Of a stretch of DNA of 50,911 bases, positions 4,243-50,454 are shown one piece after another. A program made the translations under genes and the position numbers. The stretch's first letter is position 1. Each line of letters opens with the position of its first letter. The stretch is from Pseudomonadales bacterium. GTDB taxonomy: Bacteria > Patescibacteriota > Microgenomatia > UBA1400 > PJMF01. The DNA lies in NCBI GenBank assembly GCA_020632265.1, contig JACKFW010000001.1:284981-335891 (forward strand), read 5' to 3'. Under the pieces are notes generated by a model, which did not search any database, was not told where the DNA came from, and saw only the letters and a program-made list of their open reading frames with translations.

Positions 4243-5043
4243 ATGCTTAAAAAATATTATTTAATCTTCAAATACATGCTTATCAGAACATTGCAATTCA
4301 GAGCTGAAATTGTAGTATATTCGTTTCTAGACATTATTCCTTTTTTTGTACTATTTTTTTTATGGAGCGCTGTTTATTCAAATCAACAAATAATTAATTC
4401 TTATTCATTTTCAGACATCGTTCAATATTATATTATTGTAATTCTTGTCCAGAGGTTTTCCTCCACCTATTTTGAAGTCTGGCGATCGCAAGAAATAAGA
4501 ATGGGTAAAATTGATTACTTCTTAACCAGACCTTTTTCATACATCAATGAAATTGTTTCAAAAGAAGTTGGGGGTAAAATTGTTAGCCTATTATTTTCAA
4601 TTCCAATACTCTATTTACTTTATCTTTTAACTATCAATATATTTAAATTATCCAATATATCTTTAAATTTTAATAACGTAATGATTTTTTTCGGTTTAAT
4701 CATAGCAGCGTATGCAATGCAAATTATGATTGCACTTTGGATTGTTTTACTAACTTTCTGGTTTGAAGGTTCAAGCGGTCTAGAGCATTTTAAATGGATT
4801 ATTTTATCTCTTTTTAGTGGTTCAACAATACCTTTTGAATTTATGCCTAACTGGTTACAAACAATATTTAATTATCTTCCATTTAAATATATGAGTTATA
4901 TACCAGTAAGAGTTATTCAGGGAAAAACAAATTTTACCAATAATGACGCCTTGGTTGTCATATCAACAATAATTTTTATGATATTAATTAGTAAAGTTCT
5001 TTGGACCAAAGCAAAGTATAAATATTCATCGGCTGGAGGTTAA
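4243..5043 (+). CDS. ABC-2 family permease (ABC2_membrane_6/DUF990, COG4587-like)
   Basis: About six hydrophobic segments; EIRMGKIDYFLTRPFS, LFSGSTIPFEFMP..LPFKY and C-terminal YSSAGG; in an operon with an ABC ATPase. Confidence 0.85.
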   Translation: MLKKYYLIFKYMLIRTLQFRAEIVVYSFLDIIPFFVLFFLWSAVYSNQQIINSYSFSDIVQYYIIVILVQRFSSTYFEVWRSQEIRMGKIDYFLTRPFSYINEIVSKEVGGKIVSLLFSIPILYLLYLLTINIFKLSNISLNFNNVMIFFGLIIAAYAMQIMIALWIVLLTFWFEGSSGLEHFKWIILSLFSGSTIPFEFMPNWLQTIFNYLPFKYMSYIPVRVIQGKTNFTNNDALVVISTIIFMILISKVLWTKAKYKYSSAGG

Positions 5044-5832
5044 ATGAAAAAGTATTGGAATTTGTTTTGGCATTTTAGAAAAATCCAATTAATGAAAATG
5101 ATGGAGTACCGAAGTGATTTTTTCTTTTGGATGATAGTTTCATTAATGTGGACTGCTTTTAATTATTTTTTTTATTCTTTAATAATTGGTAATAGTAAAA
5201 ACATTGCCGGCTGGAGTTATGATGAAGTCATGATCTTGCTTTCGTTTTTTACAATGATTGATGCATTTACCTGGTCGGTATTTTATCCAAATATGATTGA
5301 CTACACAGAATCAATTTACGATGGAACATTAAGTAAATTATTATTGTTACCCATCAGTAATGTATTTGTAATTCTGAATCAAAATACAACTTATCACAAT
5401 ATCCCAAGATTTTTTATTGGATTAATAGTATTAATCACAACAGTAGCAAAAATGAATATCAATGTAGATGTTTTTCAAATATTACTGGCCACTCTATTGT
5501 TCCTAACTTCAATAATATTTATTTATAGCGGGTGGTTTATTTTGGCCACTCTCGCCTTTTGGGTTGAAAAACTCAAGAACATTAATGAAATCATGCCGGG
5601 TTTTAGAAACGTTTATCAAATGCCAGTCTCAATCTACACTGGAATTACTAGTATTGCGGTAACTTTCATTTTTCCGTTGGGATTGGTAACAACTCTTCCT
5701 AGTGAAGTAATTTTAGGAAGAAGTAATTCTTTCAACATAATATATTTTATATTATTCACATTTATATTTGCTAGCCTAACTCTTCATTTTTTTAATTACT
5801 CAATTAAAAAATATTCTAGCGTGGGAAATTAA
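5044..5832 (+). CDS. ABC-2 family permease (ABC2_membrane_6/DUF990, COG3694-like)
   Basis: MEYRSDFFF, IAGWSYDEVMIL, DGTLSKLLLLPIS, YQMPVSIY and C-terminal KYSSVGN. Confidence 0.85.
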   Translation: MKKYWNLFWHFRKIQLMKMMEYRSDFFFWMIVSLMWTAFNYFFYSLIIGNSKNIAGWSYDEVMILLSFFTMIDAFTWSVFYPNMIDYTESIYDGTLSKLLLLPISNVFVILNQNTTYHNIPRFFIGLIVLITTVAKMNINVDVFQILLATLLFLTSIIFIYSGWFILATLAFWVEKLKNINEIMPGFRNVYQMPVSIYTGITSIAVTFIFPLGLVTTLPSEVILGRSNSFNIIYFILFTFIFASLTLHFFNYSIKKYSSVGN

Positions 5833-5857
5833 TTATTATTTAAGATACAATAGATTT

Positions 5858-6856
5858 ATGAAAAAAACTGTTATTAAGATTGAAAACTTAAAAAAATATT
5901 TCAAAGTTTATAAAAAAGAGCCAGGTTTAATAGGTTCAATTAAATCTCTTTGGAAAAGAAAATATGAAACTGTCAAAGCAGTCGATGATATTAGTTTTGA
6001 AATAACTCAGGGAGAAATAGTTGGCTTTATCGGACAAAATGGTGCTGGAAAAACCACCACTCTTAAAATGCTTTCAGGGTTGCTTTATCCAACAGCAGGA
6101 AAAATTGATGTGCTTGGCTTTAGACCCTGGGATCGAAAACCTGCATTTCAAAAACAATTCTCATTAGTGATGGGCCAAAAAAATCAACTTTGGTGGGATT
6201 TGCCAGCTATCGAATCATTCTATTTAAATAAAGCAATTTATGAAATTCCTGATAAAGAATTTGATATTACTCTTGAAAAGCTCGCAACAATCTTGGATGT
6301 CAAAGACATTTTACAAATTCAAGTTCGTAAACTTTCCTTGGGTCAAAGAATGAAGTGTGAAATTATTGCCGCCCTTTTGCATAGCCCAAAGGTTTTATTT
6401 TTGGATGAACCAACAATTGGTTTAGACGTTGTGATGCAAAAAATTCTTAGAGATTTTATTAAAATCTACAATAAGGAATTTGGCGCAACTATTATATTAA
6501 CAAGTCACTATATGGGTGATGTCAAAGAACTTTGTGAGAGAGTAATTATCATTGACAAAGGAAGTAAGATCTTTGATGGAAAACTAGACGACATTATCAA
6601 TAAATATGCTCGCAATAAAATCCTTTCCTTTACTTTAGGAAATGGCACTTCAGAAAATGATTTAAAAGAGTATGGAGAAATAAAATCTTTCGAAAATCAA
6701 AGAGCTACTTTAATAGTTCCACGTATCCAAGCTACTCAAATTGCTTCTAAAATTTTAAATAAGTTTAAAATTATTGATTTAAATATTGAAGAAGCCTCTA
6801 TTGAAGCCGTAATCAGAGAGATATTTGGTGATAAAAATAATAAACAAGAAAAGTAA
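5858..6856 (+). CDS. ABC transporter ATP-binding protein (COG4586-like)
   Basis: Walker A GQNGAGKTT, signature variant LSLGQRM, Walker B VLFLDEPT, H-loop LTSHYMGD. Confidence 0.95.
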   Translation: MKKTVIKIENLKKYFKVYKKEPGLIGSIKSLWKRKYETVKAVDDISFEITQGEIVGFIGQNGAGKTTTLKMLSGLLYPTAGKIDVLGFRPWDRKPAFQKQFSLVMGQKNQLWWDLPAIESFYLNKAIYEIPDKEFDITLEKLATILDVKDILQIQVRKLSLGQRMKCEIIAALLHSPKVLFLDEPTIGLDVVMQKILRDFIKIYNKEFGATIILTSHYMGDVKELCERVIIIDKGSKIFDGKLDDIINKYARNKILSFTLGNGTSENDLKEYGEIKSFENQRATLIVPRIQATQIASKILNKFKIIDLNIEEASIEAVIREIFGDKNNKQEK

Positions 6857-6865
6857 TATTGTCTT

Positions 6866-7657
6866 ATGACAAAATACTTAACTCTTCTTAAATTAAGTTG
6901 GCAAAATGGATTGGTCTATAGACTAAGTTTGTTTACTTGGAGACTGAGACAATTCTTATCAAGTCTGATGTCATTAACAGTTTGGACAGTTATTTTTACT
7001 TCAAACAATAATGCATTTGGCTATTCACAAGATAATATGATCACTTATATATTTTTAATTGCATTTTTACAAAGTATTATTATTGCTTCTTCATTAAATG
7101 GACTTGCTCAAAGAATATATTCGGGAGAAATAAGCAATCATTTATTAAAACCTTTTAATATTTTTGCTTTTTTCGCAATCGAAGAAATTGCCGATAAAGT
7201 CAAAAACACTTTTTTTTTAATTTTTGAAACATTCATATTATTTTTGTTATTTAAACCACTAATTTCTTTTCCAGATTTTAAAATATTTTCAATATTTTTA
7301 ATATGGTGTTTTGGAGGTTTAATCATGAACTTTTTCATTTCTCTATTATTTGGGAGTTTAGGTTTTTGGAGCCCACAAGTTTGGGGCCCAAAATTTTTGT
7401 TTTTTATGATCTTGGAATTCACTGCTGGAAAACTCTTTCCCCTCGATATTTTACCAAAAATATTGCAAAAAATTATTTATATTACGCCTTTCCCGTATCT
7501 CTCTTTTTTGCAAATTCAATTATTTTTGGGAAGATTAAACTCGAATGATATTCTTCACCATTCATTAATATTTATTACATGGATAATATTTTTAGGTCTA
7601 TCGACAAAATATATATGGGATAAAGGCTTAAGATCTTATGAAGCCACGGGCCAATGA
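6866..7657 (+). CDS. ABC-2 family permease (COG4587-like, second copy)
   Basis: LVYRLS, IYSGEISNHLLKPFN, AGKLFPLDILP..TPFPY and C-terminal YEATGQ. Confidence 0.85.
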   Translation: MTKYLTLLKLSWQNGLVYRLSLFTWRLRQFLSSLMSLTVWTVIFTSNNNAFGYSQDNMITYIFLIAFLQSIIIASSLNGLAQRIYSGEISNHLLKPFNIFAFFAIEEIADKVKNTFFLIFETFILFLLFKPLISFPDFKIFSIFLIWCFGGLIMNFFISLLFGSLGFWSPQVWGPKFLFFMILEFTAGKLFPLDILPKILQKIIYITPFPYLSFLQIQLFLGRLNSNDILHHSLIFITWIIFLGLSTKYIWDKGLRSYEATGQ

Positions 7658-7658
7658 T

Positions 7659-8450
7659 ATGAGACTAATAACATATTTTAAAGTTTGGAAAATTTTTGGC
7701 TTTAATGCATTACAAGAAACTTTAGTTAATCGAGGTTCTAACATACTTTTTATGATTGGTAAAACTCTAAGATTTTCTTTTGCTTTGTTGTTTCTATTTT
7801 TAATTAGATCATCGGTCAATAGTTTTGCTGGATATAACTCCGATCAAATTGTTGTTTTTTTTCTAACATATCAATTTATAGATTTAGTGAGCCAAATTTT
7901 CTATCGAGGAGTTTATTTGTTTAGTAATATGGTTAGAACCGGAGAATTTGACTTTCTACTTATTAAACCAATAAACCCATTATTCAGAGCTCTTACGGGA
8001 AAACCAGATATTAATGATGCAATCTTTTTAATTCCATCTCTACTAGTCAGTATCTATATATTTTCAAGATTAAATATTGCTATTTCTCTGGAATCATTTA
8101 TTTGGTATTTATTATTATTAATAAACAGTTTTCTGATAGTCACCGCAATTCATATTTTGGTATTAATTGTAGGAATACTAACAACCGAAGTGGATGGAAT
8201 AATTTGGATATATAGAGACTTAAATTATATGGGACGATTTCCTGCAACTATTTATATGGAGCCTCTCAGGTTCGTACTCTTTTTCATCATTCCAATTGGA
8301 ATGATGATTACCATTCCAACCGAGGTTTTATTGGGTTTAAAGCCCTCATACAGCATTCTTATTGCCTCATTGATTGGATTAGGCTCATTTTTTATCAGTT
8401 TGAAACTTTGGGACCTTTCACTAAAAAAATATTCTAGCGCAAGTAGCTAG
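7659..8450 (+). CDS. ABC-2 family permease (COG3694-like, second copy)
   Basis: FAGYNSDQ, VRTGEFDFLLIKPINPL, GRFPATIY and C-terminal KYSSASS. Probable start is ATG 7659, just after the upstream TGA. Confidence 0.85.
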   Translation: MRLITYFKVWKIFGFNALQETLVNRGSNILFMIGKTLRFSFALLFLFLIRSSVNSFAGYNSDQIVVFFLTYQFIDLVSQIFYRGVYLFSNMVRTGEFDFLLIKPINPLFRALTGKPDINDAIFLIPSLLVSIYIFSRLNIAISLESFIWYLLLLINSFLIVTAIHILVLIVGILTTEVDGIIWIYRDLNYMGRFPATIYMEPLRFVLFFIIPIGMMITIPTEVLLGLKPSYSILIASLIGLGSFFISLKLWDLSLKKYSSASS

Positions 8451-39651: not shown

Positions 39652-40605
39652 TTATTCTTCCGTATTCTCAACTAATTGAGCAGTAACTACGCCTCTTCTC
39701 AAATATGTGCCTTCTGGAGTACAAGTTACTAACTTTAATTGTTTTGAATCATATTTTTGTGTCAAAATATACACATCTTCTGGTTTTACTTCTTTTTTTA
39801 AAGTAACAACATACGTATATTTAACACCTCCAGAAGTTACAAATATTTTATCGCCAGTAGTCAAGGTCATAATGGTACTAAAAATTGAATTATATCTTCT
39901 AGGATTCTTTTCATTTGGATTATAAAATTGTCTTAAAACTGAGTGACCAAAAATTACTGGCGATCCTGGATTTCCAGGAAGTGCTGTACCTTGAAAAGCA
40001 ATTAAGCTTTTATTAAGATCAGTTCCTCCAACAACCACAGATGCATTAGCAATATTTATTTTTGGAATATCAATTGAATATTCTTTGATGTCATAATCTA
40101 ATTCAGGTAGTCCAACTTCGGGTAAAGCAGCTGAACTAAACCAATTAGATAAGTTGGTGTAATCTAATTCTTCATTCACAATTTTTAATTCTCTATTTGA
40201 TTTTGTATAACTATCATTTTGAGTAATAACCAAAGGAGTAACATCCATAACCTCTTCTTGTGGAATCGGGGAAGTTAAAGTTGTAGTTTGAACATCTTTT
40301 GCCACAACAATATAAGATCCAATTATTGGAATCACTGCACTTCCAACCAAATAAAAACCTATTGATAAAAAAAATATTGGTAAAATCATTGCGCCAACTC
40401 TTATTATTTTTGGCAATTTCCTTTTTTGAACATTTTCCCTAATTTCATCTTCTTGTGTTTCAATATTTTCGCTAACACTCATGCGTTGCAAATGTAGGTT
40501 TATTTTTTTTTCAACTTGCGATATTTCAATACCCTGACGCAGAGCATTTCTATAAAGCTCTACAATATCACTCTGCATTACTTTACTTTTTTGTTGTTTA
40601 CTCAT
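39652..40605 (-). CDS. Sortase
   Basis: TM anchor at about aa 70-95; catalytic His-Cys-Arg pattern VIFGHS, LKLVTCTPEG, YLRRGVV. Confidence 0.9.
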   Translation of the reverse strand: MSKQQKSKVMQSDIVELYRNALRQGIEISQVEKKINLHLQRMSVSENIETQEDEIRENVQKRKLPKIIRVGAMILPIFFLSIGFYLVGSAVIPIIGSYIVVAKDVQTTTLTSPIPQEEVMDVTPLVITQNDSYTKSNRELKIVNEELDYTNLSNWFSSAALPEVGLPELDYDIKEYSIDIPKINIANASVVVGGTDLNKSLIAFQGTALPGNPGSPVIFGHSVLRQFYNPNEKNPRRYNSIFSTIMTLTTGDKIFVTSGGVKYTYVVTLKKEVKPEDVYILTQKYDSKQLKLVTCTPEGTYLRRGVVTAQLVENTEE

Positions 40606-40616
40606 TTTTGATTAAT

Positions 40617-42908
40617 TTATTCACTAATAAAGTTAACTTCAATCCTCCCAGATTTTCCTGGGATTTTTTTCACAAAAATTCTTGAGATACTTGGTTGCAA
40701 AACTATTTCTACAGAATCGATTTCATCTTTTGATGAGAGAATTGAACTAATTTCACTGATATTTTTACCCATAATTTCATTTTTAATAAAATCTGCGGAA
40801 ATATCCGGAATTGCAAATGAGCTGATATTTGCGGACAAAGTTACTGGTTGATCGCCATCTAACTCATCTAAATTACTTTCTGTTGGCGCAGATAAAATTT
40901 GCGGATCTCCCTCAAATAACTTGTAATTCTCTGGAATCTGAGAGTCTAAAACTTTAGTTGCAATCGGCTTCAAATCTTCTGCAGTATATGTAATTGCTTC
41001 CAATTCAACCTTCAAAACTAAAGATAATTCTTCCGCTTCATCCCCAACCTCATAATTGAATGTGGCCTCTTCAGAAACAATATTATTGGATGGCAAAATA
41101 TACACACCATCTCCAGCACTTTTTTCAAGCTCTTGATTAATATCTTTGACCAACTCTTTTCTTAAATCTGTAAGTAGTTCAAGTTTATCTTCTGCAGAAA
41201 CAACTTTTACTTCTCTACTAGCACCTCCAGAAAAATCTTCATCTATTGAATATGCGTAAAAAGAACTTTTATCAAAAGGTAATACTAATAATTCAGTGTC
41301 TTTTTTAAGGTTACTATCTGCGCCAATCTGGAGAGCAGTAACATTCGCATCTTTCTTACCATGCTCAGTAACTCCAGGTTTAGGAGAACTTGCTGAAGCG
41401 ATAAGAACATCATCATCTAATTCAAATTTAAGTTCGCCAACACTTAAAACAGTCCCTTTCGTAAGTAGTTTTTCAGCAACAGTACTGTTGTAAATAGTAA
41501 CCCTACCTTTTGCCTTTTCTCCAACAACTTTTATACCAGTTGTTTGCATAACACTCTCGGATTCTTTAGATTTTGAAATCTTATCTGCGGCCAATATAAG
41601 TTTATCAATATCAGTTTCTTTTATCGAGGTGTCCAAAATTATTTCCAAATCCTTAGAAATTGCTTTCGTTTTAAGATCAACAGTTACCAGCGCTTTCGTC
41701 GAAACAAAAAGAGTAAAAAATCCAATCAAAATTAAAGCTATGATTCCCGATACAAAACCCACTAGGGCATAGAGTCTAAAATTTTTATAGTGTTTATCCT
41801 CTTTCTTTATTTTTTTTCGATTTGGATCAAATAAATCTTTTTTCTCAATAATTTCCTGATTTTTTGAAGTCTCCTTGTCAGAAAAATCAACCGCGAGCTC
41901 ACTATCATCTTCGAAATCTGGCTCCTTTAAATTACTTTCAGCTTCAGATATCAACTCATTATCAAATTCTTCACTTGAAATTGGAACTCCAAATGAAGAT
42001 TGTGTGGAAACAGCCTTGTCAATACTAACATCATCAAAACCGAATTCCTCACTATCTAGCTTATTAGTCTGATCAACTTCATCCACCAATTCATCATCGG
42101 GATTTTTTTCAACGCTCACTGAAGCTGCTATTGCTGCCTCCGTCATACCTTTTTGTAAAGCCACAGCTTTAGCAGCTTCATTAGTAATCATCAACTCAAA
42201 TTCCTTGGCCAACATCACTTCAACAGTAGGTGGTTGTAAAAATTGTGATTGAGCCTTCCAATCAGAATTATAAATTAGCTGTTGTTGCTTTCTTAACTCA
42301 ACTTCATCTAAATCTAGTGATGCTAATATTATGCGATTTGGTAAATAGAAACCTTCTTTAATAGATTTAGATGAAAATCTAGCTAAGCCCTCTAAAAAAT
42401 CTCCTTTACTATCTTGAGACCTACCAACACTTTCTACCTCTTTGATTTTACCTTGATGAACTAGATTTAAAGTAATATTATTTTTACCTAAAACAACAAT
42501 AATTCCAGAAAAAAGCGAGTTTCCTGAAATTTTTTGCTGAACAAGTGCCTCAGAAATTACTATAAATCCCAATGGTTCGAGTGATAAATCGTCGGTTAGT
42601 TTCTTTAATAAAGGTTTTTTTTCATCAACCACATCACCTTTTGTAACCCAACTATGATTTAATCCAAAAATTACAGAGTTTACATTTTCTGATTTATCTC
42701 CCAATTGTTGTAGACTTTCGTCTACTTTTATTAAGCAGTTGCTTACTCCATCGTAATCAGAAATATCGGATTTAGCTAAAACATCAATGCCGTCTCCAGA
42801 TATGGATAATAAAAATGACTGAATTTTAATATCAGTTAAATGAATAAAAATTACCATTGCATGATTTTTTTGATCTTGTTTTGAAGAAAATAGATTGGGC
42901 AAGTCCAT
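40617..42908 (-). CDS. Membrane protein with N-terminal degenerate FtsA/actin-like region and C-terminal baseplate-J/gp47-like region
   Basis: Single TM at about aa 380-405 after an acidic linker. Distal motifs KAKGRVTIYN, TKGTVL, VTALQIGADSNL and FSGGASREVKVVSAED match my recollection of CPR baseplate-J-like proteins. The N-terminal alternating beta/alpha pattern is only suggestive of an actin-like fold. Confidence 0.6.
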   Translation of the reverse strand: MDLPNLFSSKQDQKNHAMVIFIHLTDIKIQSFLLSISGDGIDVLAKSDISDYDGVSNCLIKVDESLQQLGDKSENVNSVIFGLNHSWVTKGDVVDEKKPLLKKLTDDLSLEPLGFIVISEALVQQKISGNSLFSGIIVVLGKNNITLNLVHQGKIKEVESVGRSQDSKGDFLEGLARFSSKSIKEGFYLPNRIILASLDLDEVELRKQQQLIYNSDWKAQSQFLQPPTVEVMLAKEFELMITNEAAKAVALQKGMTEAAIAASVSVEKNPDDELVDEVDQTNKLDSEEFGFDDVSIDKAVSTQSSFGVPISSEEFDNELISEAESNLKEPDFEDDSELAVDFSDKETSKNQEIIEKKDLFDPNRKKIKKEDKHYKNFRLYALVGFVSGIIALILIGFFTLFVSTKALVTVDLKTKAISKDLEIILDTSIKETDIDKLILAADKISKSKESESVMQTTGIKVVGEKAKGRVTIYNSTVAEKLLTKGTVLSVGELKFELDDDVLIASASSPKPGVTEHGKKDANVTALQIGADSNLKKDTELLVLPFDKSSFYAYSIDEDFSGGASREVKVVSAEDKLELLTDLRKELVKDINQELEKSAGDGVYILPSNNIVSEEATFNYEVGDEAEELSLVLKVELEAITYTAEDLKPIATKVLDSQIPENYKLFEGDPQILSAPTESNLDELDGDQPVTLSANISSFAIPDISADFIKNEIMGKNISEISSILSSKDEIDSVEIVLQPSISRIFVKKIPGKSGRIEVNFISE

Positions 42909-42996
42909 AAATATTAGTCCAATAAAAAATTGACTACTCTCTGGCAGTTTAACTATAATTAAAGCAAATTATTGACAAAAATAGAAGAGCAACTTC

Positions 42997-44862
42997 TTAT
43001 CTGAGATAAATTCTTCTAATTCCATTTGAAATTGCTTGCTCTTTAAAGATTTGAATATGACCAATCTGAGAAGTATTTTCTACATGAGGTCCGCCACATA
43101 ATTCTCTTGAAACCCAGCTTGTATCAGTTCCGTTTCCAATTGTATAAACAGTAACGTCTTCAGGATATTTTTCCACAAAAAATGCAATTGCACCAGACTT
43201 AAGAGCTTCACTTTTTTTCATATATTTCACACTGACTGTCAAAGATTCTGTTATCCAGGCATTAATTTGGTTTTCGACCTCAATAATTTCTTCTTTTGTT
43301 AAAGCTTTTGGGTGTGAAAAATCGAATCTTAATCTATTAGCAGTAATATTTGAGCCTTTTTGCTCAACATGTTTTCCCAAAATCTTTCTTAATGCTGCAT
43401 GTAATAAATGAGTAGCGGTATGATATCTAGTGGTTTCTACACTACTATCTTGCAAACCACCTTTAAATTTCTGTGATGACGAACTTCTTGACAGATCTGC
43501 ATGAGCTTTTTGTGCTTTTTGAAAAGATTCTAAAGAAACTGTCTGCCCTTTTTCTTGAGCAATTTCTTTGGTAAGTTCAAAAGGAAACCCATGTGTTTCA
43601 TACAATTTAAATGCGATCTCACCATTCAAAACACTATGCTTTTCGATCTCTTTTAACCCTTTTTGAATTGTTTGAGCGAACTTCTTTTCTTCTTGGGATA
43701 AAACATTTTGAATCTCATTTGATTTACTTAATAAATCTGGGTAAAAATCTTGATACAAGCCAATAATTAGAGGAACTAAATCTTTTATAAATAAATCGTT
43801 TATTCCAATCATTTTTGCATATCTGACCGATCTTCTAACCAATCTTCTTGAAAAATAGCCTTGTTCTTTATTTGAAGGATAGACGCCGTCTGCAGCCAGC
43901 ATTACAGCTGCCCTTAAATGATCTGCGACCACTCTAAAAGATCTTTTATTTTTTTCACTCTCTGAATACTTCTTGTTAGAAATCATTTCTAAATACTCAA
44001 TAATATCTTTGAAAATAGATGTCATAAAGACATCATTAACATCGTTAATTGCTGCCAAAATCCGCTCAAATCCACCTCCAAAATCAACATTTCTTTGAGA
44101 AAGTTCTATAAATCCACCATCATTTTGTTTGCGATATTGCATAAAAACACTATTACAAATTTCCAAAAATCTTCCGCAATCACAATTAACATGACAAACT
44201 TGATTTTTAAATAATGAATTTTCATGAATTTTTTTATCGGCTCCAAAATCATAAAAAACTTCACTATCGGGTCCACCCGGTTCCCCCGCTGGCATGTTGT
44301 CTGGAACTCCTGCTCTCGACCACCAGTTATATTTTTCATCGAAATAAAAAATTCTGCCGGCCTGCATACCATTGATTTGAGAATGATCAATGTCGATTGC
44401 CTCAATGCCAACTTTGGAAAATAACTTTTTCCAAATTTCAACAGAATCCAGATCTTTATCAATATTTAATTTTATATTTCCACTAAAAACAGTAACAAAT
44501 AATTTTTTTGGATCTAAATTGATTTTATTAACCAAGAAATCAAAAAGCCATTCAAGCTGTTCATTTTTAAAATAATCACCAAATGACCAATTTCCTAACA
44601 TTTCAAAAAATGTGATGTGTCTGTTATCGCCAATTTCCTCAATATCTTGAGATCTAAAACATTTTTGAATATCAACGATTCTAGAACCCTTGGGATGGGG
44701 AACTCCCAAAAAATATTCCATCATAGGTTGCATACCCGAACCCGTAAACAAAGTTGTGGGATCATTTTCAGGAACTATCGAGGATGAAGGAACTATTTGA
44801 TGATTCTTATTTTTATAAAAATCTAAATATAGTTGTTTTAATTTATTAGCTTGCATAATCAA
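42997..44862 (-). CDS. alaS: Alanyl-tRNA synthetase, short form lacking the C-Ala domain
   Basis: DPTTLFTGSGMQP, QKCFR..DIEEIG, HITFFEMLGNWSFGDYFK, editing motifs HTATHLLH and ELCGGPHV; ends at GIRRIYLR (621 aa). Confidence 0.96.
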   Translation of the reverse strand: MIMQANKLKQLYLDFYKNKNHQIVPSSSIVPENDPTTLFTGSGMQPMMEYFLGVPHPKGSRIVDIQKCFRSQDIEEIGDNRHITFFEMLGNWSFGDYFKNEQLEWLFDFLVNKINLDPKKLFVTVFSGNIKLNIDKDLDSVEIWKKLFSKVGIEAIDIDHSQINGMQAGRIFYFDEKYNWWSRAGVPDNMPAGEPGGPDSEVFYDFGADKKIHENSLFKNQVCHVNCDCGRFLEICNSVFMQYRKQNDGGFIELSQRNVDFGGGFERILAAINDVNDVFMTSIFKDIIEYLEMISNKKYSESEKNKRSFRVVADHLRAAVMLAADGVYPSNKEQGYFSRRLVRRSVRYAKMIGINDLFIKDLVPLIIGLYQDFYPDLLSKSNEIQNVLSQEEKKFAQTIQKGLKEIEKHSVLNGEIAFKLYETHGFPFELTKEIAQEKGQTVSLESFQKAQKAHADLSRSSSSQKFKGGLQDSSVETTRYHTATHLLHAALRKILGKHVEQKGSNITANRLRFDFSHPKALTKEEIIEVENQINAWITESLTVSVKYMKKSEALKSGAIAFFVEKYPEDVTVYTIGNGTDTSWVSRELCGGPHVENTSQIGHIQIFKEQAISNGIRRIYLR

Positions 44863-44930
44863 TTCATTTTATTATTAAGTTTTTCTAACTTTCAGATTTT
44901 ACAATTATTTTTTGGATTGAAACAAATTTA

Positions 44931-44939
44931 ATTATAACA
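44931..44939 (-). promoter_or_regulatory. Putative extended -10 promoter of alaS
   Basis: TGTTATAAT on the minus strand in the divergent spacer. Confidence 0.45.
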
Positions 44940-44986
44940 TCTTGATAAAACATTCCTCTTTCACATATGTAGTCTAATGAAGTAAA

Positions 44987-45385
44987 ATGGAAAGCAGAAT
45001 GCAGGAAAATAAAGACTTACAGGGTGAAATTAACAATATTCTAGGTAGTTCCGATACGCTGCCAGAGCCAAATGTTGTTGCGCCTGTACAAATTAATAAT
45101 CCTAACGGACTCAACAATAGTAATTTAAACACATCATATGATCCTCAACAAAATTTATCATTTGAAGCACATAAATATTCTCCAAATAATGAAAAATTTA
45201 AAAAACTAATTATTATTGTTCCTTTGGTTTTTTTTGGAATTTTATTATTACTAAAATTTTCCGATCATTTATCTTATCAAGCATGTATCAGGGCAACAGG
45301 TAGTACAATTGTCAGATTAGAGCCCGCTTTTTGTAAAACAGAGAATGGGAAAATATTTCAAAAAAATCCTAAAATGATAAAATAA
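44987..45385 (+). CDS. Hypothetical single-TM protein with a C-terminal two-Cys motif
   Basis: Low-complexity N-terminus, TM IIIVPLVFFGILLLL, then YQAC...G.......PAFC....GKIF. Confidence 0.7.
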   Translation: MESRMQENKDLQGEINNILGSSDTLPEPNVVAPVQINNPNGLNNSNLNTSYDPQQNLSFEAHKYSPNNEKFKKLIIIVPLVFFGILLLLKFSDHLSYQACIRATGSTIVRLEPAFCKTENGKIFQKNPKMIK

Positions 45386-45472
45386 CTTTAAAATAGTACT
45401 AAGTCACAAAAATAAATATTATAATTCTAATCGGAATCTGTAAACAATATTATAAAAAGTAATTAAATAAAT

Positions 45473-45646
45473 ATGACAAATACCTCAAATGAATTAAAAA
45501 ATATTTTAAACTCTGCTGAATTTAAAAAAAGATCGAGCTATGCCGCAGATGACGCACTAAAATTTTCATTCAAATGGATAGGAATATCTCTAAAAGCTGT
45601 AATTGATTTCATCAAGTCAATGATCCAAATGACTTTAGGAAAATAA
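45473..45646 (+). CDS. Small hypothetical protein, 57 aa (below the ORF-track cutoff)
   Basis: Hand translation MTNTSNELKNILNSAEFKKRSSYAADDALKFSFKWIGISLKAVIDFIKSMIQMTLGK fills the intergenic gap; the C-terminal half looks like an amphipathic helix. Confidence 0.65.
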   Translation: MTNTSNELKNILNSAEFKKRSSYAADDALKFSFKWIGISLKAVIDFIKSMIQMTLGK

Positions 45647-45680
45647 TCAGCAAATCATTCAAATCTAAATGACCCTAATT

Positions 45681-46043
45681 CTAAATTCCTTTAAACATCT
45701 TTTTCTTGATTAAAGTTGTCTTATTATCACTTTTTGAATTTTTATTAGTTGCCAACTTACGTTTATTTTTTCCAACATTTTTGCTAATTTTTTTAGAACT
45801 ATCATCTGCGACAAAGTCAGTAATCTTAAATTTAAGAGTATTAACAATATCAACTAGACTCGGTTCTTGACCGGTTATCAGTCCTTCTTCTTCAAGTTTT
45901 TTTTTGATTTTATCCCATTGAAAAAATATTTGATCCTTAATTTCACGACCTTCTTTTGTTTTCGTCAGGAAAAAACCAGCAACTCCCGCAAGAGCTCCAA
46001 CAACAAAGCCTAAAAAGAAGTTATCGCGATCATTGGTTGTCAT
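45681..46043 (-). CDS. YtxH-domain protein
   Basis: FFLGFVVGALAGVAGFFLTKTKEGREIKDQI; follows a DUF948 gene, as in the Bacillus ytxG-ytxH arrangement. Probable start is ATG 46043. Confidence 0.8.
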   Translation of the reverse strand: MTTNDRDNFFLGFVVGALAGVAGFFLTKTKEGREIKDQIFFQWDKIKKKLEEEGLITGQEPSLVDIVNTLKFKITDFVADDSSKKISKNVGKNKRKLATNKNSKSDNKTTLIKKKMFKGI

Positions 46044-46320
46044 TTTTTTTCTTGGTTTTTTCGCCACCTTTATTTAACCAAGTTGTAAATGCTTCAAAAA
46101 ATTGCATTCCAGTTTTGATTCCAGCCAAAGCGCCCCCAAGGTTTTGAAAGGGATTTGTAATTACATGAATTTTTTCTTCTACAACATCCAATGTATCGTT
46201 AACTTTTCTCAAAGTTCGTTTGATTTCAATCAAAACCATCATCACTTGAACTCCAACGACACTCAAGACTATTGTGAGAATCACTAATACGACTGCAAAA
46301 ATTACGGGTAAAATATCCAT
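46030..46320 (-). CDS. DUF948 (YtxG/YoxC-like) membrane-anchored coiled-coil protein
   Basis: N-terminal TM then EIKRTLRKVNDTLDVVEEK; SD AAAGGA. Confidence 0.75.
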   Translation of the reverse strand: MDILPVIFAVVLVILTIVLSVVGVQVMMVLIEIKRTLRKVNDTLDVVEEKIHVITNPFQNLGGALAGIKTGMQFFEAFTTWLNKGGEKTKKKNDNQ

Positions 46321-46411
46321 ATAATCCTTTTTGTTTTATGTTTATATAATACAACATTCTTTTAATATTTTCTTTATGTTTTCCTAATTACATCCTGTCT
46401 AATTCATAAAA

Positions 46412-47056
46412 CTAAAATTGAACATTCACTGATCTCTGAACTAGATTGGTTTTTCCTCTTCTATCCTCAGTTTGAACAGTAATTATTGCAATTCCTTCAT
46501 TTGGAATTAAAATTTCAGTTTTAAAATTTCCCGAAGTTTGCAATGATACCGGTTGTTCATTAATTGTAAGCATTGCATCTGGAGTTGTTTTACCTTCCAC
46601 AATCACCTTTGAAGATACTATATCTTGTTCTTTTGGTGAGGATACCTCAAGCAACGGTGGTTTATTTAAGTTATGCCACTGAAAACCAATATAGCCAAGT
46701 AAACTTGAAAAAATACTGATTAAAATGACCACAACTAAAGTAATATTATTATTTGAAGACCTTTGCTTCATTACGGGCTTGATAAATTCTCTTGGTACCA
46801 ATCTTCCCTTTGCGCTTTCTTTATAATCACGCCTTAACATTGCAATCAAGGGAGCGTGATCAAATCCAAAAATATTTGCATAGGTTTTTATATAACCCTT
46901 AACAAAAGTTGTTGACGGTAATTCAACAAAATTGTTTTCCTCAAGTGCAATTAGATAGTTTACTCTAATTCTTGTTTTTTTGGAAAGATCTTCAATTCTA
47001 AGGCGATGACTGACCCTTTCTTCTTTTAGAGCTTCACCGATTGTCTTAGTTCGCAT
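46412..47056 (-). CDS. RodZ-like protein: HTH (HTH_25), TM, Ig-like beta domain
   Basis: TIGEALKEER..LSKKTRIRVNYLIALEENNFVELPSTTFVKGYIKTYANIFG, then a TM, then PPLLEVSSP..VIVEGKT..LTIN..GNFK..ITV. Confidence 0.85.
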   Translation of the reverse strand: MRTKTIGEALKEERVSHRLRIEDLSKKTRIRVNYLIALEENNFVELPSTTFVKGYIKTYANIFGFDHAPLIAMLRRDYKESAKGRLVPREFIKPVMKQRSSNNNITLVVVILISIFSSLLGYIGFQWHNLNKPPLLEVSSPKEQDIVSSKVIVEGKTTPDAMLTINEQPVSLQTSGNFKTEILIPNEGIAIITVQTEDRRGKTNLVQRSVNVQF

Positions 47057-47071
47057 AGATTATTTTTTATA

Positions 47072-47503
47072 TTATTGCAACTTATTTCTAATCATGGCAG
47101 AAATTCGACTACCGTCTGCTTTTCCTGCAACAGCTTTTACTGATTCGCCAATCAATTTTCCCATATTCTTTTCTTCAGATTGTGAAATTACTTTAGAAAC
47201 AATTTCTTCTAATTCAGCATCAGTTAATTGCTTTGGTAAATAAGAATCCATAATCATAATTTTTTCTTCTTCTTGAACAACCAAATCATCTCTTCCAGCT
47301 TCTTTGAATTCTAAAATAGCATCTCTCATCTTTTTTGCTTGAGAAGAAATTATTTTAATAACTCCTTCATCATTCTGTTCTCCGTTATCAATTTCAAAAT
47401 TTTTGATTTCAGAACGCAAATATCTCACTACTCCTAACTTAACAGCATCTCTGGCCTTCATTGCAGATTTCATATCTTCGATAAGTTGATCTTTTAAGTT
47501 CAT
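47072..47503 (-). CDS. GatB/YqeY domain protein
   Basis: LKDQLIEDMKSAMKARD, FKEAGRDDL, YLPKQLTDAEL, MGKLIG, GKADGSRIS. Confidence 0.93.
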   Translation of the reverse strand: MNLKDQLIEDMKSAMKARDAVKLGVVRYLRSEIKNFEIDNGEQNDEGVIKIISSQAKKMRDAILEFKEAGRDDLVVQEEEKIMIMDSYLPKQLTDAELEEIVSKVISQSEEKNMGKLIGESVKAVAGKADGSRISAMIRNKLQ

Positions 47504-47606
47504 ATTTCTCCTAAATTATTTTCTATAAAAAAATTATACACATAGTATTTTTGTACGAATCTGTAATATTCCAGCTAATTGTAACATAGGCTCATACATA
47601 AAATAA

Positions 47607-47635
47607 TTTAGGCAGTCGACTAGCAACTGCCTAAA
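47607..47635 (-). terminator. Intrinsic terminator after the DsbA-like gene
   Basis: Inverted repeat TTTAGGCAGT..ACTGCCTAAA (10 bp, extendable by G-U and G-C pairs on the minus strand), followed by TTATTTT. Confidence 0.75.
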
Positions 47636-47658
47636 TATAAATTACTTAACTAGAAAAA

Positions 47659-48456
47659 TTAATTGAATAACAAATCAGAATATTCCCAAAATGCATCATT
47701 TCCTTCAAGTTCAGCTACACATTCAGCTGCTTCAGCTGCTTTTTGTGCACTTGCATGAAAAGATAATGGATAATTTCTGTAAACCCAAGCAACGTCGGTT
47801 TTATATTCTTCTAAAATTTGAAGCATCGTTGGATGAAAAGTTTGGCAAAAAGGACATTCATAATCAGAATATTCCACTAATACAATTTTTGCAGTTTCTG
47901 AACCCTTATAATGATCTTGAGAAGTTACTGCTGGCGTATTAGCAACTTCAGCCTTTTTGACGGGATCTATGGCTCCACCATTAACATATACATCTATCAT
48001 GGCTTTGACTTGAGCATATGGTAAAGCTCCTGGAATCAACTCTGCTGGCTCACCATTTACAATAATGATAGTACCTGGAGTTCCCGTTACACCTGCTGTT
48101 TGACCGCCATTAAAATCATTTGTAATTTTTTCTACCATTTCTCCACTATCTATACATTTTTGTAACTCAGATTCATTGGCACCAACTTGAACCCCTTTAG
48201 CAACTAATGCTGGAATTGATAAATCTCGTGCTCCTGGAACTGGTGCTGTATCTCCTGGCACAACTGCGGTTGGAGCTGCAGGTTTGCTACCAGAACCTGT
48301 CTTTAACATTTTATTTTCAGTCCAAAGTGATCCGAAAAAGAATCCTCCTAAGAAAAATGACAAAATGATAACTATTAATACAAAGTTTTCAGAAACGAAG
48401 CTTAACAAATTGCCAAGAGAAAACAAGCCGTTTCCTTCAGAATTACTTTTTGACAT
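47659..48456 (-). CDS. Membrane-anchored DsbA/Thioredoxin_4-family oxidoreductase, circularly permuted
   Basis: Contains DHYKG..AKIVLVEYSDYECPFC..WVYRNYPL..HASAQKAAEAAEC and KCIDSG..GVTGTPGT..IPGALPY..KAMID, in the reverse of the canonical order. Confidence 0.85.
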   Translation of the reverse strand: MSKSNSEGNGLFSLGNLLSFVSENFVLIVIILSFFLGGFFFGSLWTENKMLKTGSGSKPAAPTAVVPGDTAPVPGARDLSIPALVAKGVQVGANESELQKCIDSGEMVEKITNDFNGGQTAGVTGTPGTIIIVNGEPAELIPGALPYAQVKAMIDVYVNGGAIDPVKKAEVANTPAVTSQDHYKGSETAKIVLVEYSDYECPFCQTFHPTMLQILEEYKTDVAWVYRNYPLSFHASAQKAAEAAECVAELEGNDAFWEYSDLLFN

Positions 48457-48616
48457 CAGTATTACCTTTCAATTGGTATAATAAATAAATAATAAAATAA
48501 ATTACAACTCAAATACTTTAACATCTTCATATAAATAATCAAAAAAAACAAGTACTATTTGTTGTAGTATTTATATTTAAGATTAACTTAAAAATAATTA
48601 TTAATCACATTATCAC

Positions 48617-49474
48617 ATGAACAATAAAAATATAAGGGTATTAAGCCCATACGAAAAAAATCAATTGCTCTTTCATGGGATAGATCAAGAAGTATTGTTA
48701 AATACTGCTGCTCCAGTTGAATATGTTACCGGTCACGTAAATTTTTGCAATTCTGATTTTTTAGTAAATAAGAAAGTATTAATACCCAGAATTGAAACTG
48801 AAGAACTTGTTTCCCTTGCAGTAGATGAAGCTGAAAAAATATTTAAAGCAAATGGAAACAAAAAAATTAAAATTGTAGATGTTGGAAGTGGCAGTGGCGC
48901 CATAGCAATCTCGGTTGCAAAATACTTAATAAATCGTAATATTAGTTTTGAGCTCACTGGTTTGGAAATCTCCAGAGAAGCAATTTCATTAGCAAAAAAA
49001 AATCTCTCAATTATAAATCCAAAACTCCCTGTTTCCTTTGTAAAATCAAATCTTCTTGAAGCAATCAATGTTAAAGTTAAGTCAAATAGACAGGGTGAAA
49101 TCGGTCGCAAAGCTACAATTAATCAACAAGATATAATCAATCGACAAAGTGCAACAAATTCTCAAAGTAAAATTGATCTAATCATCGCGAACTTACCCTA
49201 TATTCCTTCTGATAGAATCCAAAAATTGGATGCATCCGTAAAAAATTTTGAACCCCTATTAGCTTTAGATGGTGGCAAAGATGGTTTGGAGTTAATTAGA
49301 AAATTGCTATCACAAGCTAAACCATTGTTAAAAATGAAGGGAGTAATGCTTTTAGAATTAGATATAACTCATGATTTTAATACCATGCAACAATTCAGTA
49401 ACGATTGGAAAATCAAAATAAATGAATCTCTATTTTCAGGCGTTAATTTTGGAATTATTTATTTTCTGAAATAA
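48617..49474 (+). CDS. prmC: Release factor glutamine methyltransferase (HemK/PrmC)
   Basis: PVEYVTG, VLIPRIETEELV, SAM motif VDVGSGSGAIA, IIANLPYIP (NPPY variant), EPLLALDGGKDGL. Confidence 0.9.
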   Translation: MNNKNIRVLSPYEKNQLLFHGIDQEVLLNTAAPVEYVTGHVNFCNSDFLVNKKVLIPRIETEELVSLAVDEAEKIFKANGNKKIKIVDVGSGSGAIAISVAKYLINRNISFELTGLEISREAISLAKKNLSIINPKLPVSFVKSNLLEAINVKVKSNRQGEIGRKATINQQDIINRQSATNSQSKIDLIIANLPYIPSDRIQKLDASVKNFEPLLALDGGKDGLELIRKLLSQAKPLLKMKGVMLLELDITHDFNTMQQFSNDWKIKINESLFSGVNFGIIYFLK

Positions 49475-49524
49475 GCCAAGACTTTATGCGAATTTTTTTA
49501 TAAGTATGCTAGGATTAATTTATT

Positions 49525-50454
49525 ATGAATACAAAAGTACCTACCACAGTTTTTTCAGGATTCCTTGGATCGGGAAAAACTACAATTATTTCAAATCTTA
49601 TTGATGATCTTCAATCACAAAACCAACAAGTAGTTTATATCAAAAATGAAATTGGTAGTGCTGATGTCGATACTAAAATATTAAAAGGCAGAGGAATTGA
49701 AACAAAAGAATTGTTAAATGGATGCATTTGCTGTACTTTAGTTGGTCCTTTTGCTAATGCAGTAAATGAATTAATTGAAGATTTCAATCCAGATAGAATT
49801 ATCATTGAAGCTTCGGGTGCAGCTGACCCTTCTGCTCTAGCTTTAATGATTTCTTCTCATCCAAAACTTGAGCGTGACGGCATCATTGGAATAATTGATG
49901 TTGTAAATTTTCAAGGTTATAAAGATTTGAGTATCACTGCTCAAAATCAAACTAAATTCACCGATCTACTTGTCTTTAACAAAGTTGAACTTGCTGACGA
50001 TGATCAAAAACGCGCAGTTGTAGGCTATGTTAGGGAACTCAACACGCATTCTCCAATTATTGAGGCTCATAATGGTAAAATTTCTAGCGAATTAATCTTT
50101 GGATTAAGCCAGACTGAACTCAATTCCATATTAGAAAAAACCACTATCATTAAATCGGACCATATAAACAAAGATGAGATTCAAACTTTTAATCTGAAAC
50201 CAGCTGGTAAATTTGATCAGAAAACGCTTGAAAAAACTTTAAGTGAATGCCCAAAAAACATTTTTAGAATTAAGGGCTTTGTAAAACTTAATAATGATAT
50301 TTATTATTTATTTAACACAGTTGGAAAAAGAACCGACTTTAAATTAATTGAAGATGCAAATATTAGTGAAAACCTATTTATTTTTATTGGCTTTCTTGCA
50401 CATGAACATGAAGCAGAAATTAAAGTTGCACTAGAAAAGATTGCTATATTTTAA
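49525..50454 (+). CDS. COG0523/CobW-family G3E GTPase (putative metallochaperone)
   Basis: SGFLGSGKTT, NEIG..VD, metal motif GCICCT, IIIEASG, NKVEL, and C-terminal CobW_C-like IFRIKGFV. Confidence 0.92.
   Translation: MNTKVPTTVFSGFLGSGKTTIISNLIDDLQSQNQQVVYIKNEIGSADVDTKILKGRGIETKELLNGCICCTLVGPFANAVNELIEDFNPDRIIIEASGAADPSALALMISSHPKLERDGIIGIIDVVNFQGYKDLSITAQNQTKFTDLLVFNKVELADDDQKRAVVGYVRELNTHSPIIEAHNGKISSELIFGLSQTELNSILEKTTIIKSDHINKDEIQTFNLKPAGKFDQKTLEKTLSECPKNIFRIKGFVKLNNDIYYLFNTVGKRTDFKLIEDANISENLFIFIGFLAHEHEAEIKVALEKIAIF

Follow-up and report, generated by a model that had tools for sequence, protein, structure and literature searches.

Probable natural circular permutation of a membrane-anchored DsbA-type thiol:disulfide oxidoreductase in Patescibacteria

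Introduction

DsbA is the textbook disulfide-forming enzyme of bacteria and a classic subject of engineered circular permutation; both the DsbA enzyme family and natural circular permutation as a phenomenon are well known. In canonical DsbA the CXXC motif precedes the helical insertion and the loop with the cis-proline (cis-Pro) comes last. The present analysis concerns a gene for a DsbA-type oxidoreductase whose product carries the two halves of this domain in the opposite order. It lies on the reverse strand of a 50,911-nucleotide (nt) stretch (hereafter the window) of contig JACKFW010000001.1 (assembly GCA_020632265.1, positions 284,981 to 335,891), which is titled "Pseudomonadales bacterium" and placed among the Patescibacteriota in GTDB.

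Two groups of described proteins are closest to the product of this gene. The first comprises the DsbA-II and alpha-DsbA enzymes: the second disulfide of DsbA-II enzymes joins helices H2 and H5 (PMC5193440), members of the alpha-DsbA class share four conserved cysteines, and their cis-Pro is preceded by an invariant Thr (PMC3870256), and DsbA2 of Pseudomonas aeruginosa (PaDsbA2) has been reported to be strongly oxidising (PMC3870256, PMC5193440). The second is a laboratory product, the circularly permuted E. coli DsbA of PDB entry 1UN2 (cpDsbA_Q100T99), which, going by the citation in PMC3281007, goes back to a study of random circular permutation by Hennecke, Sebbel and Glockshuber (1999). 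The literature that was searched for a natural permutant of DsbA or of the thioredoxin fold yielded engineered permutants and general surveys or methods for circular permutation only (the supplements of the 2026 CIRPIN survey being outside its scope), and nothing on DsbA in Patescibacteria was found in the searchable literature.

Domain order and predicted fold

The protein of 265 amino acids (aa) encoded in the window scores above the family cut-offs of both Thioredoxin_4 (PF13462; 66.4 bits vs 23.2) and DSBA (PF01323; 44.1 bits vs 25.6), and an NCBIfam scan of it gave sub-threshold matches only. The profile coordinates of these matches are swapped. Approximately aa 91-154 (residues 39-102 of the scanned fragment) align to positions 106-164 of 165 of the Thioredoxin_4 profile and to positions 131-188 of 191 of the DSBA profile (E 4.5e-5), and aa 179-263 align to Thioredoxin_4 positions 3-87 (E 2e-14 when scanned alone); the canonical sequence of CXXC half, helical insertion and cis-Pro half is not found, since profile positions 106-164 come before 3-87. 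When the sequence is re-permuted, it gives one collinear Thioredoxin_4 match (3-164/165) of 78.1 bits, as against the two stretches of the native order. A tblastn comparison of the canonical-order protein P0059 with the window returned three blocks in the same arrangement, namely the transmembrane helix with its tether (55% identity), the C-terminal half (52%) and the N-terminal half (68%). The two segments are homologous to contiguous canonical parts, are swapped, and jointly cover the domain once; the swapped order is confirmed, far beyond chance.

An earlier, sequence-only reading of this gene had placed the C-terminal half directly after the transmembrane segment and a Pro-rich linker, followed by the N-terminal half, with the break inside the helical insertion. 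The profile coordinates and the tblastn blocks bear this out, and the break is located between H3 and H4. That reading had also proposed that a new linker joins the old termini, which holds for aa 161-169 and not beyond, as the alignment to P0059 resumes at aa 170, within the segment that precedes strand 1. From there the chain runs through the pre-strand segment, strand 1, strand 2, H1 with C201-P-F-C204, strand 3, H2 with C246, and H3. We consider the gene to encode a functional, extracytoplasmic, membrane-tethered oxidoreductase whose chain is a natural circular permutant of a DsbA-type domain, with a probability of about 0.85. The swap makes the thioredoxin core contiguous and distributes the helical domain over both chain ends.

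Structure prediction agrees with this interpretation. The full-length AlphaFold2 model, built with 63 permuted homologs, has a predicted local distance difference test score (pLDDT) of ~98 over aa 80-265, with the elements in the order H4, H5, H6, strand, strand, H7, short linker helix, strand 1, strand 2, CPFC helix, strand 3, H2 and H3. The ectodomain modelled alone (aa 76-265) is predicted to form one compact, complete DsbA-type domain (pLDDT 96.4; predicted TM-score, pTM, 0.92). In the model, C201-P-F-C204 starts helix 202-217 and stands at the N-terminus of H1, as expected of a CXXC motif, and G125-T126-P127, the predicted cis-Pro loop, precedes strand 128-133.

The Foldseek matches of both models are all of the DsbA/ScsC type, and the top PDB match of both is 1UN2 (203 aligned columns, TM-score 0.54-0.55). 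Its chain was checked and reads Q100...K189-GGGTG-A1...T99 of E. coli DsbA; the match and this chain order together indicate that the natural protein has the connectivity of the laboratory permutant, cut after H3. Canonical structures of the DsbA type (PaDsbA2, Wolbachia alpha-DsbA1/2, ScsC) align over about 82-92 columns at 1.7-2.7 Å (87-92 columns at 1.7-2.2 Å for PaDsbA2 and Wolbachia alpha-DsbA1), because a sequential aligner can see one half only. Both 1UN2 and the window protein are opened in the helical-domain loop that follows H3, and in both a short linker joins the old termini. In contrast to the window protein, 1UN2 is man-made and derives from a soluble periplasmic class I DsbA with CPHC, a GGGTG linker and no second disulfide; the window protein is natural, has a transmembrane anchor and belongs to the DsbA-II type, with CPFC plus a further cysteine pair, and the two share ~14% sequence identity.

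Enzyme class and conserved cysteines

The closest solved structure by sequence to the re-ordered domain is PaDsbA2 (4n30), which likewise carries CPFC. The features of the DsbA-II/alpha-DsbA subclass are present: H2 and H5 each contribute a non-catalytic cysteine, and T126 precedes P127, the predicted cis-Pro. The window protein shares the Thr, the four conserved cysteines and the placement of the extra pair with PaDsbA2 (4N30), Wolbachia alpha-DsbA1 (3F4R), M. tuberculosis DsbA (4K6X) and C. trachomatis DsbA, and each of its halves superposes on structures of this type at 1.7-2.2 Å; these enzymes, however, are canonical in order, with CXXC first and cis-Pro last. In the model, C246 is found in helix 237-251 (H2) and C101 in helix 95-104 (H5), and both align with cysteines of PaDsbA2. 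These two non-catalytic cysteines, whose retention the sequence-only reading had pointed out, are invariant among the permuted homologs (below). A C101-C246 disulfide would tie the C-terminal H2-H3 to the N-terminal H4-H6 across the break and thereby, unlike in other DsbA-II enzymes, would bridge the two chain ends.

Distribution of the permuted family

The best 120 database matches of the window protein include 63 clusters (45-69% identity) in which the cis-Pro precedes the CXXC; the remainder are canonical in order and match one half per local alignment (60-68% identity). In the alignment of the 63 permuted sequences, C101, C201, C204, C246, G125, T126 and P127 are invariant together with several other residues, and the C-termini of all proteins lie within a few residues of "...LF". 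When 1.84 billion representatives were searched with a profile, eight or more permuted clusters of single-domain proteins emerged at the 50% level. Among the best 80 loci of a scan with one genome per GTDB species (L numbers below), the permuted order occurs in 20. Five of these belong to the group of the window itself, including a Candidatus Woesebacteria metagenome-assembled genome (MAG) whose flanking genes are sister to those of the window (bootstrap 1.0). The other 15 are far more divergent (34-42% identity) and come from genomes labelled WWE3, Colwellbacteria, Peribacteria, Paceibacterota and others; they have the same break in the H3-H4 loop and keep all four cysteines. Thus, the same order is found in many genomes of the candidate phyla radiation (CPR), and the permuted proteins retain CPxC, Thr-cisPro and both helical-domain cysteines throughout. 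Contigs L011, L013, L016, L021, L027, L036, L062 and others have Patescibacteria-type genes and synteny despite foreign titles ("uncultured Pseudomonadales", "Gammaproteobacteria", "Vitreimonas", "Limisphaerales", "Woesearchaeota") and are probably mis-binned or mislabelled MAGs.

The gene occupies a shared chromosomal slot, in which cobW and a methyltransferase gene read in one direction and the DsbA gene, yqeY and HTH_25 in the other, followed further on by AlaRS, a large protein and a sortase. A permuted gene stands in this slot in the window, in L001, L088 and L089, and in the gene table for P0039; P0059 (locus L004), the closest canonical-order protein, is encoded in the same position between the methyltransferase gene and yqeY. 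The permuted gene is therefore a positional ortholog of an ordinary, canonical-order DsbA. The canonical Patescibacteria orthologs (such as P0059/L004 and L062) have ~58-62% identity to the window protein over the re-ordered domain, with the same slot and transmembrane motif; they differ in running from the transmembrane helix to the N-half and then the C-half, with an intact H3-H4 loop ("ELGGQ" type) and a C-terminus in "...YL". The motif GGFFxGSxWTEN is found in the transmembrane helix of permuted and canonical orthologs alike, with G38, G42, S43 and E47 invariant. Since this conservation of the anchor (aa 23-52; window 48301-48390) is unusually high in both architectures, it suggests a specific intramembrane or juxtamembrane contact instead of a passive anchor.

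Origin of the permuted order

If the DsbA domain was duplicated or fused in frame and the leading N-half and trailing C-half were then lost, the permuted chain would result, and every intermediate would have kept one working domain. This is the most likely origin of the permuted gene, as the sequence-only reading had also suggested, and the process probably took place more than once in Patescibacteria. It fits because the linker carries the pre-domain segment and because tandem domains and adjacent gene pairs exist. The linker between the halves consists mostly of the canonical segment before strand 1, with ~9 residues new in the window protein, and the linker of the permuted protein P0060 resembles the low-complexity tether of the canonical L062 protein. 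Proteins with two to five or more canonical DsbA domains in tandem (~400-1400 aa; P0121-P0269) are very common, for example P0121 (974 aa, five CxxC) and P0270 (1423 aa, Myxococcota), and the profile of the permuted family matches such proteins in a single stretch across the domain junctions. Some tandem domains (P0131, P0170) are without CxxC. Like the permuted family, the tandem proteins have a junction of C-half, linker and N-half within one chain; unlike it, they start with an N-half, end with a C-half, consist of complete canonical domains and are devoid of the transmembrane motif of the lineage, and some are from other phyla, such as Myxococcota. No such tandem protein comes from this lineage. 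Several CPR genomes (L058:3746-5270, L078:3770-6170, L043, L050 and L075) have a pair of neighbouring DsbA genes in the same orientation, an arrangement from which a fused two-domain gene could form.

With respect to the number of events, the stronger evidence comes from a pair of sister genomes. The tree built from the flanking YqeY, HTH_25 and methyltransferase proteins (500 columns) places the permuted locus L089, which encodes P0060, as sister to the canonical locus L062 with bootstrap 1.0. The two DsbA proteins have a common N-terminus (MKQESPYS...) and are 81% identical in the N-half and 57% in the C-half. P0060 corresponds to L062 re-ordered as residues 1-71, residues 181-260, NGTGATTVPAG and residues 72-175, with the loss of five loop residues only ("ELGGQ"), and the similarity of the DNA extends right up to the new stop codon. 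The possibility of L062 being a revertant was rejected, because it keeps the ancestral "ELGGQ" loop, a sequence common to other canonical proteins. If the permutation recurred, genes before and after the event would still stand at the same locus in sister genomes. Similarly, the permuted genes of L017 and L024 in Peribacteria share their synteny with the canonical gene of L071, and the proteins are most similar to canonical proteins of Peribacteria.

Trees of the DsbA proteins themselves (neighbour-joining with Kimura distances; 176-190 columns from re-ordered or HMM-aligned halves; short backbone branches) place 61 of the 63 close homologs in one clade, with P0060, P0102 and the divergent permuted groups scattered among canonical sequences. 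No bootstrap replicate, of 97 in one analysis and of 100 in another, joined all permuted proteins in a single monophyletic group. On its own this is weak evidence for recurrence, as short backbone branches and rate effects could mislead; the L089/L062 pair provides stronger evidence than these trees. On balance, at least two or three independent permutation events are favoured. The fuller proposition, that canonical orthologs of different Patescibacteria lineages gave rise, several times and independently, to the same permutation with termini in the H3-H4 loop, is given slightly better than even odds; the lineages would be the main Woesebacteria-like clade, the P0060 lineage and Peribacteria, possibly with WWE3 and Paceibacteria as further ones.

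One alternative is a single ancient origin in early Patescibacteria, spread by descent and horizontal transfer, with the canonical genes in sister genomes explained by gene replacement. It would account for the break of all permuted proteins within a few residues in the same H3-H4 loop, for the single clade formed by the main group of 61 clusters, and for the post-H7 junction, which is often x-N/x-G in both the main clade and P0060; the poor resolution of the DsbA tree backbone is also compatible with it. Nevertheless, Gly after H7 is general in the linkers of tandem domains as well, and the failed monophyly, the sister position of L089 and L062 with their near-identical N-termini and the ancestral loop of L062, and the shared synteny in Peribacteria all argue against it, which leaves a single origin less likely than not. 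A further alternative, a long-lived two-domain ancestor resolved differently in different lineages, remains alongside repeated permutation.

Proposed function

The protein is most probably a membrane-tethered extracytoplasmic thiol:disulfide oxidoreductase of the DsbA-II/alpha-DsbA type, acting on exported proteins. The positively charged N-terminal tails of the homologs suggest an N-in/C-out topology. After the transmembrane helix and the flexible tether, the chain would start at H4, continue with H5, H6, both final strands and H7, and pass by way of a linker of ~9 residues into the old N-terminal segment (strands 1-2, CPFC helix, strand 3, H2), with the end after H3, and the conserved C246 (H2) and C101 (H5) would staple the chain ends across the break. 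Catalysis is expected to proceed as in ordinary DsbA, the CPFC disulfide being handed to cysteines of exported proteins and the enzyme then being recycled by a membrane partner. An oxidase role is most likely, because of the CPFC motif and the similarity to PaDsbA2.

The DsbA-like genes of many Patescibacteria loci lie near, and in several cases adjoin, an ORF (open reading frame) of ~170-190 aa with 4-5 predicted transmembrane helices and an intramembrane CxxC (Table 1), for example "GSVTCIACAST" or "GTGCAACGSF"; in L036 the neighbouring DsbA gene is permuted. No Pfam family matched the three such ORFs that were scanned (L070, L036 and L087), which sets them apart from VKOR, DsbB and DsbD_TM. 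This small membrane protein could be an undescribed redox partner of DsbA in CPR bacteria.

Alternative interpretations

Several observations weigh against the interpretation of the protein as a permuted, oxidising DsbA. The TM-score to 1UN2 is only ~0.55, with a root-mean-square deviation of 5.6 Å, and 1UN2 belongs to a different DsbA class. The proximity of C101 and C246 is presumed from homology. No two-domain intermediate is present among the best 120 homologs (all 237-307 aa), and the multi-domain proteins among the best 150 representatives all lack the WTEN transmembrane motif of the lineage. There is no VKOR, DsbB or CcdA partner and no multi-transmembrane CxxC ORF in the 51-kb window; VKOR, DsbB and CcdA are also not beside the gene in the syntenic loci of the lineage (L001, L088, L089). 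Furthermore, several relatives, including the permuted L014, adjoin a CcdA/DsbD_TM gene (Table 1), which would fit a reducing pathway.

As the window is without a partner gene, either catalytic direction (oxidase or isomerase/reductase) may apply. The protein might belong to a reducing or isomerising pathway and owe its reduced state to a CcdA/DsbD-like membrane protein, in the way that ScsB keeps ScsC reduced. Apart from the adjoining CcdA/DsbD_TM genes, the presence of ScsC proteins among the closest solved relatives by sequence and fold speaks in favour of this. Nevertheless, the dipeptide of CPFC and the best sequence match are shared with the strongly oxidising PaDsbA2, and the CcdA gene is absent from both the window and the syntenic loci, making a reducing role unlikely for this protein. 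For some family members near CcdA/DsbD_TM there are hints that they may be kept reduced and may not act as oxidases.

It is very improbable that the halves complement one another between chains, in a domain-swapped dimer or oligomer, instead of assembling into an intramolecular permuted fold. Half-domains on long linkers can swap, the membrane tether raises the local concentration and the structure prediction was made for the monomer only; however, the monomer model is very confident, and ~23 residues (aa 159-181) are available from H7 to strand 1, where the engineered cpDsbA needed only a GGGTG insert. Finally, an assembly chimera or a decaying, functionless pseudogene, mis-joined or truncated from the C-half of one DsbA and the N-half of the next, would have exactly this look of a fragment spanning a tandem junction (tandem proteins match the family profile across their junctions), but it is effectively refuted and was rejected, as contigs of three other sequencing runs carry the 798-nt gene unchanged, flanks included, at least 63 diverged clusters and the loci of 20 GTDB species agree in start, end and invariant catalytic residues, the gene owns a transmembrane anchor, a Shine-Dalgarno-like site and a terminator, no remnants of the missing halves were found downstream of the stop codon in the window or in L089, and the single-domain model reaches a high pTM.

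Gene structure and genomic setting

The gene is a complete ORF of 265 codons and a TAA stop and is the only ORF of its region (Table 1). A Shine-Dalgarno-like GAAAGG lies 8 nt 5' of the ATG, and a 13-bp hairpin followed by a T-run stands 3' of the gene, in keeping with the earlier view that the gene is intact, with its own ribosome-binding site and terminator. The key residues named in that view were found in their places when checked codon by codon: CPFC (aa 201-204) at nt 47845-47856, G125-T126-P127 at nt 48076-48084, C101 at nt 48154-48156 and C246 at nt 47719-47721.

The window has a G+C content of 32.6% and contains long ORFs of 1231 and 1169 aa together with a run of short ones; from this layout it looks like a core chromosomal region. 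The neighbourhood 39652-50454 is conserved and is common to relatives at 50-65% protein identity. Its sortase and large protein might be clients of the DsbA, by analogy with actinobacterial pilus assembly, which is speculative. Elsewhere in the window (4243-8450), four successive plus-strand ORFs of 262-270 aa, each with 4-6 predicted transmembrane segments, have a permease-like look.

Table 1. Coordinates of the permuted gene, its parts and its neighbours in the window, and of membrane-protein associations in related loci (given as locus:positions).
Feature	Position	Strand	Basis or remark
ORF of the permuted, membrane-anchored DsbA-like thiol:disulfide oxidoreductase	47659..48456	-	Sequence, Pfam, AlphaFold2
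aa 1-52, short N-terminal tail and single transmembrane helix (helix 25-52)	48301..48456	-	Alignments, AlphaFold2
aa 53-75, Pro/Ala/Gly-rich flexible tether, low pLDDT (<50 for aa 55-70)	48232..48300	-	AlphaFold2
aa 76-160, former C-terminal half (H4-H5-H6-strand-strand-H7) with C101 and Thr-cisPro loop G125-T126-P127	47977..48231	-	Pfam, tblastn, AlphaFold2
aa 161-169, NGGAIDPVK, sole new linker from old C-terminus (end of H7) to old N-terminal segment	47950..47976	-	tblastn, alignments
aa 170-265, former N-terminal half, ending ...FWEYSDLLFN	47662..47949	-	Pfam, tblastn, AlphaFold2
Intrinsic-terminator-like hairpin, 13-bp stem then TATTTTAT	47606..47636	-	Begins 22 nt past the stop codon
Weak sigma-70-like promoter match, TTGTAA-18-TATTAT, 5' of the gene	48478..48507	-	Motif scan; match count not above shuffles
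Sortase-like ORF	39652-40605		Window neighbourhood
763-aa ORF	40617-42908		Window neighbourhood
621-aa ORF, at the position held by AlaRS in related loci	42997-44862		Window neighbourhood
HTH_25/RodZ-like	46412-47056		Window neighbourhood
YqeY	47072-47503		Window neighbourhood
PrmC-like methyltransferase	48617-49474		Window neighbourhood
CobW	49525-50454		Window neighbourhood
Relatives adjoining a CcdA/DsbD_TM gene	L006:6887-7642, L073:1740-2519, L039:4573-5454, L059:4616-5377, L068:5010-5795, L037:4619-5329, L014:2510-3283		L014 gene permuted
ORFs with 4-5 transmembrane helices and CxxC near DsbA	L070:4582-5106, L038:1643-2185, L087:4549-5112, L056:5508-6074, L047:1940-2536, L048:2059-2598, L050:3474-4019, L036:2677-3204		

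Conclusions and perspectives

Nature appears to have made the same cut as a laboratory permutant with a crystal structure (1UN2), and in many ultra-small CPR bacteria the permuted form has become the resident DsbA; its interest is heightened by its wide distribution, by the probability that it recurred and by the exact match to a laboratory design. Natural permutants of this kind are easily missed, because annotation labels are generic (the permuted proteins are named "thioredoxin domain-containing" or "DsbA family" in the databases) and because sequential structure search sees half of the domain only. The permuted and canonical orthologs in the same slot constitute matched natural pairs, from which the effects of connectivity on folding during secretion, stability and redox properties could be learned. 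Such pairs also bear on whether the break is tolerated thanks to the conserved H2-H5 disulfide, and on whether permutations arise by duplication and trimming. Recurrence at one site, if true, would imply a selective advantage, for which the candidates are earlier folding of a contiguous thioredoxin core during export, a changed order of emergence of the four cysteines, or a different attachment point of the membrane tether. If recurrence holds, these bacteria would also be one of the few natural settings in which the evolution of circular permutations can be tested.

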